Positions 1 through 248 of a DNA stretch of 248 bases are shown piece by piece (the stretch's first letter is position 1; each line of letters begins with the position of its first letter). Position numbers: made by a program. The DNA is taken from NCBI RefSeq assembly GCF_003334385.1, contig NZ_QOWN01000221.1; one strand, given 5' to 3'. The DNA is from Escherichia coli. Its GTDB lineage: Bacteria; Pseudomonadota; Gammaproteobacteria; Enterobacterales; Enterobacteriaceae.

Positions 1-248
1 GATGATGTGCGTCCGATGCTTGAGCAGATGGTGAAAGAGGCCGTAAGTCATATCCCTGCTCCGCGTGACGGTCGTGACTATGATCCGGATGTTCTGCGGA
101 AGGCGGTTCTGGAGGCGGTGAATGCCCTGCCAGCTCCGCAGGACGGGCGTGATGCCACGGCACTGGAAGTGCTCCCCGCCATTGACGATCAAAAATCCTT
201 TCCCCGGGGCACGTATGCCACACACCAGGGCGGACTCTGGCGGGCGTA

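Follow-up and report, generated by a model that had tools for sequence, protein, structure and literature searches.

The window analysed here is a 248-nt stretch of Escherichia coli DNA that is free of stop codons in frame +1 over its entire length and translates to DDVRPMLEQMVKEAVSHIPAPRDGRDYDPDVLRKAVLEAVNALPAPQDGRDATALEVLPAIDDQKSFPRGTYATHQGGLWRA. Its best match is at the locus L001, where it corresponds to residues 672-754 of WP_179231423 (98.8% identity), the product of an 861-aa ORF. The window DNA also matches 91 phage records at 90-99% identity, all of which are Stx-converting or related E. coli siphophages, and it occurs at 5112 places in 1250 E. coli records and in 1245 of 5426 genomes. 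Annotated matches fall within a CDS named 'phage portal protein'. The gene order in L001 is TerS, TerL, a 645-aa protease-capsid fusion, a small ORF, the 861-aa ORF, a head-tail connector, a head closure gene and the tail genes. This order is itself unusual for a head module, as TerL is followed by the 645-aa Peptidase_S78 plus Phage_capsid fusion and the small ORF, with the portal gene last (L001:3839-5776; L003:2619-4556). Additionally, an SGNH/GDSL hydrolase gene is located directly upstream of the portal gene in two distant relatives (L005:2478-4550, L011:94-1308). Rfam, promoter and terminator scans of the window were empty. A minus-strand, ATG-initiated ORF of 34 aa at nt 78-182, antisense to the coding frame, has neither homology nor signal support and is probably spurious.

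The 861-aa ORF as a whole does include a genuine HK97-family portal domain. The portal profiles PF04860 and TIGR01537 match residues 45-388 only, and the segment that corresponds to the window lies outside of the portal fold, in a region whose homologue is a separate protein in most relatives. A Pfam scan of the full 861-aa protein returned Phage_portal and a weak CBM_5_12 match (PF02839, i-E 0.012, residues 811-833) and nothing else, including no match to the Mu F / SPP1 gp7 minor head protein family PF04233. NCBIfam had no match to the C-terminal part of the protein, and PHROGs label pieces of it as 'unknown function' or, by association, as 'portal protein'. Domain prediction on the full protein, a check proposed in the first-pass annotation, places the portal upstream of the window and the weak CBM_5_12 match downstream of it. 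In Stx-type E. coli phages, the product that RefSeq and PHROGs name 'portal protein' contains about 470 residues that are not portal but a separate accessory protein. Neither a dedicated Pfam family nor a function has been reported for this accessory protein, although its relatives fill thousands of clusters, and our literature searches found no study of it and no experiment on it.

Protein family and portal linkage

Relatives of the C-terminal domain were collected with a profile-free scan of 1.84 billion cluster representatives, which yielded 5491 cluster representatives at E<=1e-3, of which 1842 also pass E<=1e-10. Among the 150 best of these 5491 relatives, nearly all are proteins of 200-550 aa that carry the domain at their extreme C-terminus. 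They share a plan that consists of an N-terminal amphipathic helix, a highly variable stalk and the conserved C-terminal domain. The N-terminal helix (for example 'MNERELS.IKALGEEF') is also present inside the E. coli ORF, where the same segment is found at residue 455. In all contexts examined the stand-alone gene is located directly 3' of the portal gene, with an overlap of 1-16 nt, and before the connector or head-closure genes. Among the 72 loci with enough upstream sequence, an HK97-type portal gene is immediately upstream in 69 (66 as separate ORFs and 3 as fusions). The stalk and knob protein is the product of an ancestrally separate gene that has become fused to the portal gene in the lineage of the window.

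The fused and split E. coli forms differ by one G in a run of six (G6, fused) versus five (G5, split) residues that is situated eight codons before the portal TGA, at L001:7333-7338 and 668 nt upstream of the window. In the split form the portal TGA and the downstream ATG share bases within the sequence ATGA, an arrangement suggestive of translational coupling. The fetched loci include 7 with G6 and 21 with G5. Recurrent slippage is suggested by the identity of the 300-nt flanks of L023 (G5) and L007 (G6) and by the presence of G6 on four or more flank haplotypes. A -1 ribosomal slip on the G5 run would also yield the protein of the G6 allele. Phage 2851 carries the fused form, while the split form is present in Lys8385Vzw, Salmonella phage FSL SP-016 and Rhizobium phage RHph_X2_26. 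An independent in-frame portal fusion is found in P0139, a protein of 1237 aa with a different type of stalk.

PGAP calls the split form a 'frameshifted' phage portal pseudogene (L006:756-3178, L008:752-3174). The many copies that are flagged in this manner could be taken to mean that the extension is decaying in defective prophages and no longer functional, with the boundary inside the window being the edge of a degenerate repeat in a pseudo-ORF. The copy number of the repeats is indeed unstable, and the allele of an E. coli O157:H7 F6667 prophage (L008) stops exactly at the junction, where a stop replaces the Gln codon right after '...LEILPAIDD' with loss of the whole C-terminal domain and a PGAP remark of 'internal stop'. 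In addition, a survey of the Sakai prophages scored several prophages of this head type as portal-defective (PMC2669165). However, the 'frameshifted' state is the ancestral two-gene arrangement, and the pN/pS ratio is about 0.19 for the domain and for the repeats. Identity within the C-terminal domain is furthermore 46-67% over thousands of clusters, with Gly, Trp and Pro positions that do not vary, and the gene is carried by cultured phages both as the split form (FSL SP-016, RHph_X2_26) and as the fused form (2851). Decay is thus strongly disfavoured as an explanation, and we regard it as barely credible. The same Sakai survey reported that Sp9 DNA is packaged and that Sp6 is transferable, which its authors credited to complementation by other prophages (PMC2669165); if those prophages are of the split type, these observations are compatible with the split form not being a defect. 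The 'frameshifted' label on an ancestral two-gene state probably inflates the count of defective prophages in EHEC genomes.

The repeat stalk and where it ends

The window contains the last two of the eight units that make up the repeat region of the L001 protein, each unit being a helix followed by an [IL]PxPxDG motif. These motifs occur at residues 527, 552, 581, 606, 635, 660, 689 and 714 of the full protein, with a spacing that alternates between 25 and 29 residues, of which the window displays a 25-residue interval. The true tandem unit is 54 aa (162 bp) and is composed of two half-units, with the L001 array having 3.3 copies at 90% matches. Tandem Repeats Finder detected no repeat in the window alone, as the repeat is visible there only at the protein level or as a single DNA direct repeat (Table 1). 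BLOSUM autocorrelation of the translated window is positive at lag 25 only (0.58 for the whole window and 1.93 for aa 1-54), and 0 of 2000 shuffles reach the observed value. When successive 25-residue frames are compared, the score falls from +54 (start aa 1) to -16 and -19 (start aa 26 and 31, respectively). Because the frame score turns negative past aa ~26, the 25-residue period stops after the second unit, as had been noted in the first-pass annotation. The last motif occupies aa 43-49 of the window (residue 714 of L001) and is followed by 142 non-repetitive residues. Thus, the repeats do not resume downstream, so the view that a repeat stalk here meets a distinct downstream domain stands.

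An AlphaFold2 model of residues 672-861, built from 56 sequences (mean pLDDT 92.4), consists of two helices, a short neck and an all-beta domain whose pLDDT is 97 or higher from about residue 61 of the segment (window nt ~181) onward. The penultimate, B-type half-unit forms a short amphipathic helix (segment residues 4-16) that is followed by an IPAPRDG loop. The last, A'-type half-unit forms a helix (segment residues 29-41) and its motif then merges into the start of the conserved domain. The model therefore has one 13-residue helix per repeat unit, with Pro-rich loops in between, and no long uninterrupted helix.

The change at the end of the stalk is also apparent from composition and from conservation. 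Aromatic residues (F, W and Y) increase from 1.7% in aa 1-60 of the window to 13.6% in aa 61-82 and Gly increases from 3.3% to 13.6%, which bears out the earlier remark that the downstream part is richer in both. Corresponding values for a full-length relative are 1.7% aromatics and 3.3% Gly in the stalk versus 9.2% and 13.4% in the C-terminal domain. An alignment of 65 diverse representatives is gappy up to residue 719, and conservation in that part is confined to the periodic motif; between G720 (window nt 145, the start of 'GRDA') and the C-terminus it has no gaps and is strongly conserved. This step in conservation and the all-beta model support the boundary that had been proposed.

The exact position of the boundary depends on the criterion that is used, as the repeat ends at about nt 152, family conservation begins at nt 145 and the beta core begins at about nt 181 (Table 1). 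The coordinate of 181 in the first-pass annotation is accordingly correct for the start of the beta core, whereas the conserved domain, which includes its neck, begins about 36 nt earlier. The neck contains an invariant G49 as well as D51, A52 and P59, each conserved at 90% or more. Strands in the first part of the beta core are predicted at segment residues 72-75 and 78-87, and R69, G70, A73, G78 and W80 are invariant or nearly invariant. The all-beta domain runs for about 107 residues past the end of the window.

Table 1. Features located in the 248-nt window
Feature	Position (nt)	Strand	Basis or remark
Penultimate half-unit, B type, 27 aa, DDVRPMLEQMVKEAVSHIPAPRDGRDY	1..81	+	unit layout in the full protein; part of the 162-bp array
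DNA direct repeat, two 41-nt copies	37-77 and 112-152	+	75 nt apart, 71% identical; encodes ...EAV..[IL]PAP.DGRD
Last half-unit, A' type, DPDVLRKAVLEAVNALPAPQDGRD	82..152	+	last motif LPAPQDG; second DNA repeat copy ends at nt 152
Conserved neck of the C-terminal domain, GRDATALEVLPA	145..180	+	conservation profile of 65 representatives; pLDDT 83-88
Start of the all-beta core, first CBM5/12-like sub-domain, IDDQKSFPRGTYATHQGGLWRA	181..248	+	pLDDT >=97, conservation and fold matches
CAA (Gln) codon	190..192	+	stop in the L008 allele

The stalk is the part of the protein that varies in length and in kind. Its repeat array changes in steps of 162 bp (54 aa) among phages that are otherwise 91-96% identical (L001:7575-8107 versus L002, L006 and L009), and the fetched alleles carry 2, 6 or 8 PxDG motifs. 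Across the family stalk length ranges from 31 to about 470 residues, with 2 to 8 units being found among near-identical phages. The E. coli stalk has no Gly-X-Y run by the criterion of the collagen family PF01391, which is on record for several homologues. Among 144 homologue representatives, 63 (44%) have a collagen-like stalk with runs of at least 5 consecutive Gly-X-Y triplets, 32 contain two or more helix/[ILVM]PxPx[DNE]G units, 2 are of a 'PEPLPDI' type and 58 have none of these, with 11 of the 144 counted twice as they meet both the collagen-run and the PxPxDG definitions. The homologues P0126, P0159, P0210 and P0073 also have a short Gly-X-Y tail after the conserved domain ('KRGRDGKDGRNGID...'). 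In many family members the knob is thus flanked on both sides by collagen-like sequence, while the E. coli protein ends after 'KRGRDAGGGK'.

The knob domain and mosaicism across the gene

We conclude that the C-terminal domain, which comprises about 140 residues, adopts a tandem CBM5/12-like fold. A PF02839 annotation exists for many homologues at 60-69% identity (and is described as 'faint' for P0128), and the small beta fold of the domain can be superposed on solved CBM5/12 modules. The CBM5/12 signature Y-x-x-G-D-x-V-x-[WY]-x-G-x-x-[WY]-x-[AC] is present twice, as a degenerate first copy inside the window (PRGTYATHQGGLWRA) and as a canonical copy downstream (YHPGDTVTWGGSLWHC), and the aromatic residues W751, W763, Y816, W829 and W847 are at least 90% conserved. 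A Foldseek comparison with the whole PDB ranked the tail fibres of Agrobacterium phage 7-7-1, the receptor-binding complex of phage Milano and chitin enzymes at the top, and BFVD matches were mostly phage proteins described as 'collagen triple helix repeat' or ChiC_BD. A sequence search of the PDB matched designed helical-repeat proteins (E 0.008), which is explained by periodicity and composition, and a short motif in All3316. Purifying selection on the C-terminal domain is equally strong whether the allele is fused or split, with a pN/pS of 0.19 in both.

These properties invite a comparison with tail-fibre-type receptor-binding proteins, and the first-pass annotation had indeed suggested that such junctions are frequently recombination break-points at which host-range modules are exchanged. 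Besides the stalk-plus-knob plan, this idea draws on weak matches of the C-terminal domain to PHROG tail-fibre families (E 0.001-0.004), on structural matches to the tail fibres of phages 7-7-1, Milano, A-1(L) and Pa193, and on distant homologues that join the same domain to wholly different types of stalk. However, in every context examined the gene belongs to the head module, where it lies between portal and connector and either adjoins the portal gene or is fused with it, and not to a tail or baseplate module. The plan of a stalk and a knob is fibre-like, but the gene is not that of a tail fibre.

The pattern of divergence also runs counter to a variable, exchangeable tip. Identity of the C-terminal domain to that of L001 follows portal identity with r = 0.98 over 62 loci, and the domain is conserved as well as the portal or better (for example 63% versus 51% in L085). 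Divergence is faster in the N-terminal helix and in the stalk; loci with a portal identity of about 67% have 30-55% identity in the N-terminal helix and 36-67% in the last repeat units. The knob is thus the slowest-evolving part of the protein and is inherited together with the portal, which is the opposite of what is expected for a swapped host-range cassette.

Close relatives are collinear across the junction, so the drop in similarity near position 180 that would have marked a mosaic joint is not observed among them. A single place covers at least 80% of the window in 1249 of 1250 E. coli records, and in 91 of 93 phage records (91-96% identity) a single place likewise accounts for 80% or more of a query of 1.6 kb that extends over the junction. 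Across those phage records the matched span differs in steps of about 162 bp, which represent repeat copy number. The E. coli alleles are mosaic throughout the gene. Pairwise max-chi-square comparisons among 36 distinct E. coli alleles, where pairs are non-independent and each contributes a single breakpoint, placed only 9 of the 204 significant breakpoints in the junction zone (nt 120-240). In window coordinates that continue along an extended alignment, breakpoints cluster at nt 540-573 (53 pairs), 360-420 (39 pairs), 760-820 (38 pairs) and 480-540 (28 pairs). The junction is thus not enriched in breakpoints. Some E. coli alleles have repeats that differ from those of L001 together with a domain that is identical to that of L001, a pattern that could be taken for exchange at the junction but is what turnover of the repeat array would give. 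Taken together, the receptor-binding, host-range-swapping interpretation is already largely refuted, and we consider it very improbable.

Two features of this mosaicism lie elsewhere in the gene. The strongest breakpoint cluster (nt 540-573, L001:8540-8573) is at the 3' end of the gene, beside the start of the connector gene, and fits the usual mosaicism of phages at gene boundaries. Furthermore, the N-terminal helix occurs as two allele classes with about 75-77% versus at least 86% identity to L001 (L001:7350-7560). These classes are seen in L018, L022, L026, L027, L037, L046 and L002, where full-length portal matches are at least 94% identical and the match of L018 is a partial one (92.8% over 25% of the query). 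The two helix classes indicate a mosaic patch that is upstream of the repeats and not at the junction of stalk and knob.

Proposed architecture and relation to known systems

The window covers the end of the stalk and the start of the conserved all-beta domain of a portal-linked accessory phage protein, an explanation that we consider probable as a whole. This protein has three parts: a helical N-terminus of about 70 residues, the repeat stalk, and a C-terminal domain that resembles two CBM5/12 modules. The stalk is built from alternating half-units of 27 residues, in which an [IL]PxPxDG loop follows a helix of about 13 residues. Its length shifts in units of 162 bp, and it may serve as a spacer. 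Collagen triple helices are formed by trimers only, and a collagen-type stalk is present at the same place in 44% of the homologues; the stalk is therefore probably trimeric. A model of three linker-joined copies had low confidence (pLDDT 65, pTM 0.49). The fold and the conserved aromatic residues suggest that the knob may bind a conserved ligand, most likely a glycan such as peptidoglycan or another polysaccharide, and a strain-specific receptor would be an unlikely ligand. The N-terminus is presumably held at the portal, as suggested by the neighbouring position of the two genes, by their ATGA overlap and by in-frame fusions that arose twice independently (E. coli G6 and P0139). The junction of stalk and knob would then be a structural domain boundary and the end point of expansion and contraction of the repeat array, and not a preferred site of exchange.

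A CBM5/12-like knob on a variable, portal-linked stalk raises the topological question of whether it resides inside or outside of the capsid. To our knowledge, the C-termini of all solved portals are in the crown and face the capsid interior, so the fused form implies an internal position with tethering to the crown, which fits badly with an external glycan-binding fibre. It is also unusual for a fibre that the knob is its most conserved part. One could thus envision the extension as an internal axial structure on the portal crown that functions in DNA organisation, retention or ejection, with a knob that binds a phage component or DNA; the P22 portal barrel or portal-bound minor head proteins would be its functional analogues. 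Such a role agrees with the fact that E. coli alleles, among them that of phage 2851, commonly have the extension fused in frame to the C-terminus of the portal, and with the separate origin of such a fusion in P0139, the apparent translational coupling of the split form, the tight co-evolution of the domain with the portal, its high conservation across hosts and the same purifying selection on fused and split alleles. On the other hand, collagen-like or helix-loop stalks with CBM5/12 knobs are otherwise known from external fibres, and a stalk with anywhere between 2 and 8 units among near-identical phages, and between 31 and about 470 residues across the family, is hard to square with a capsid interior of fixed size. 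The short 13-residue helices broken by Pro-rich loops are also unlike a continuous barrel, and the protein has no Pfam Mu_F or other minor-head-protein signature. We regard this internal role as unlikely.

For the portal-linked accessory protein that we favour, a more far-reaching proposal is that the G5/G6 run, or a -1 slip on it, acts as a switch between a CBM-tipped stalk that is tethered to the portal crown and a free protein. We view this as a long shot. If it were true, these proteins would form an undescribed class of portal-tethered accessory proteins that is widespread in HK97-like siphophages, and the conserved knob would act inside the capsid or at the portal vertex instead of on a tail fibre. 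The junction of stalk and knob itself is an ordinary domain junction.

Several aspects of this protein are already known from other systems, namely the CBM5/12 fold of the end domain and the stalk-plus-knob plan of phage fibres. What is unusual is a head-module gene that is coupled or fused to the portal gene, a reversed gradient of conservation and the lack of an assigned Pfam family or function. The CBM5/CBM12 modules that bind chitin or cellulose (PF02839) include the C-terminal module of Serratia ChiB, the chitin-binding domain of Streptomyces ChiC, the cellulose-binding domain of Erwinia EGZ and the tandem CBM12 pair of a Vibrio chitin deacetylase. The knob shares with these modules a small all-beta fold and the aromatic signature described above. 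It differs from them in that additional strands unite two modules in a single conserved block of about 140 residues, in having its own conserved neck ('GRDA..LEILP.ID') and in a Pfam match that is below significance in the E. coli protein. It is additionally carried by a phage head-module protein and not by a glycoside hydrolase, and its binding is only predicted.

The collagen-repeat tail-fibre proteins of uncultured Caudoviricetes have the same overall arrangement of an N-terminal attachment, a length-variable stalk and a globular C-terminal domain, and a true Gly-X-Y stalk is present in 44% of the homologues described here. In contrast to those fibres, the present gene is located between portal and connector and can be fused to the portal, its knob is the most and its N-terminus the least conserved part, and a trimer is only a proposal. 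T4 fibritin, with short helical segments and loops between them, is an architectural analogue.

Comparison with proteins that are associated with the portal leads to a similar mixture of likeness and difference. The C-terminal extension of the P22 portal (gp1) forms a barrel, and SPP1 gp7 and Mu F are minor head proteins that are portal-adjacent and at times fused to portals. Like these, the stalk and knob protein is encoded as, or directly after, the portal C-terminus, and both fused and separate forms of its gene occur, which implies a physical association with the portal crown. No homology of the stalk and knob protein to the P22 gp1 barrel or to SPP1 gp7 and Mu F was detected. The AlphaFold2 model has no long continuous helix of the kind found in the P22 barrel, and the PF04233 match that characterises SPP1 gp7 and Mu F is absent. 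Consequently, while its position relative to the portal is that of these proteins, a repeat stalk that ends in a CBM-like knob sets it apart from all three in composition and fold.
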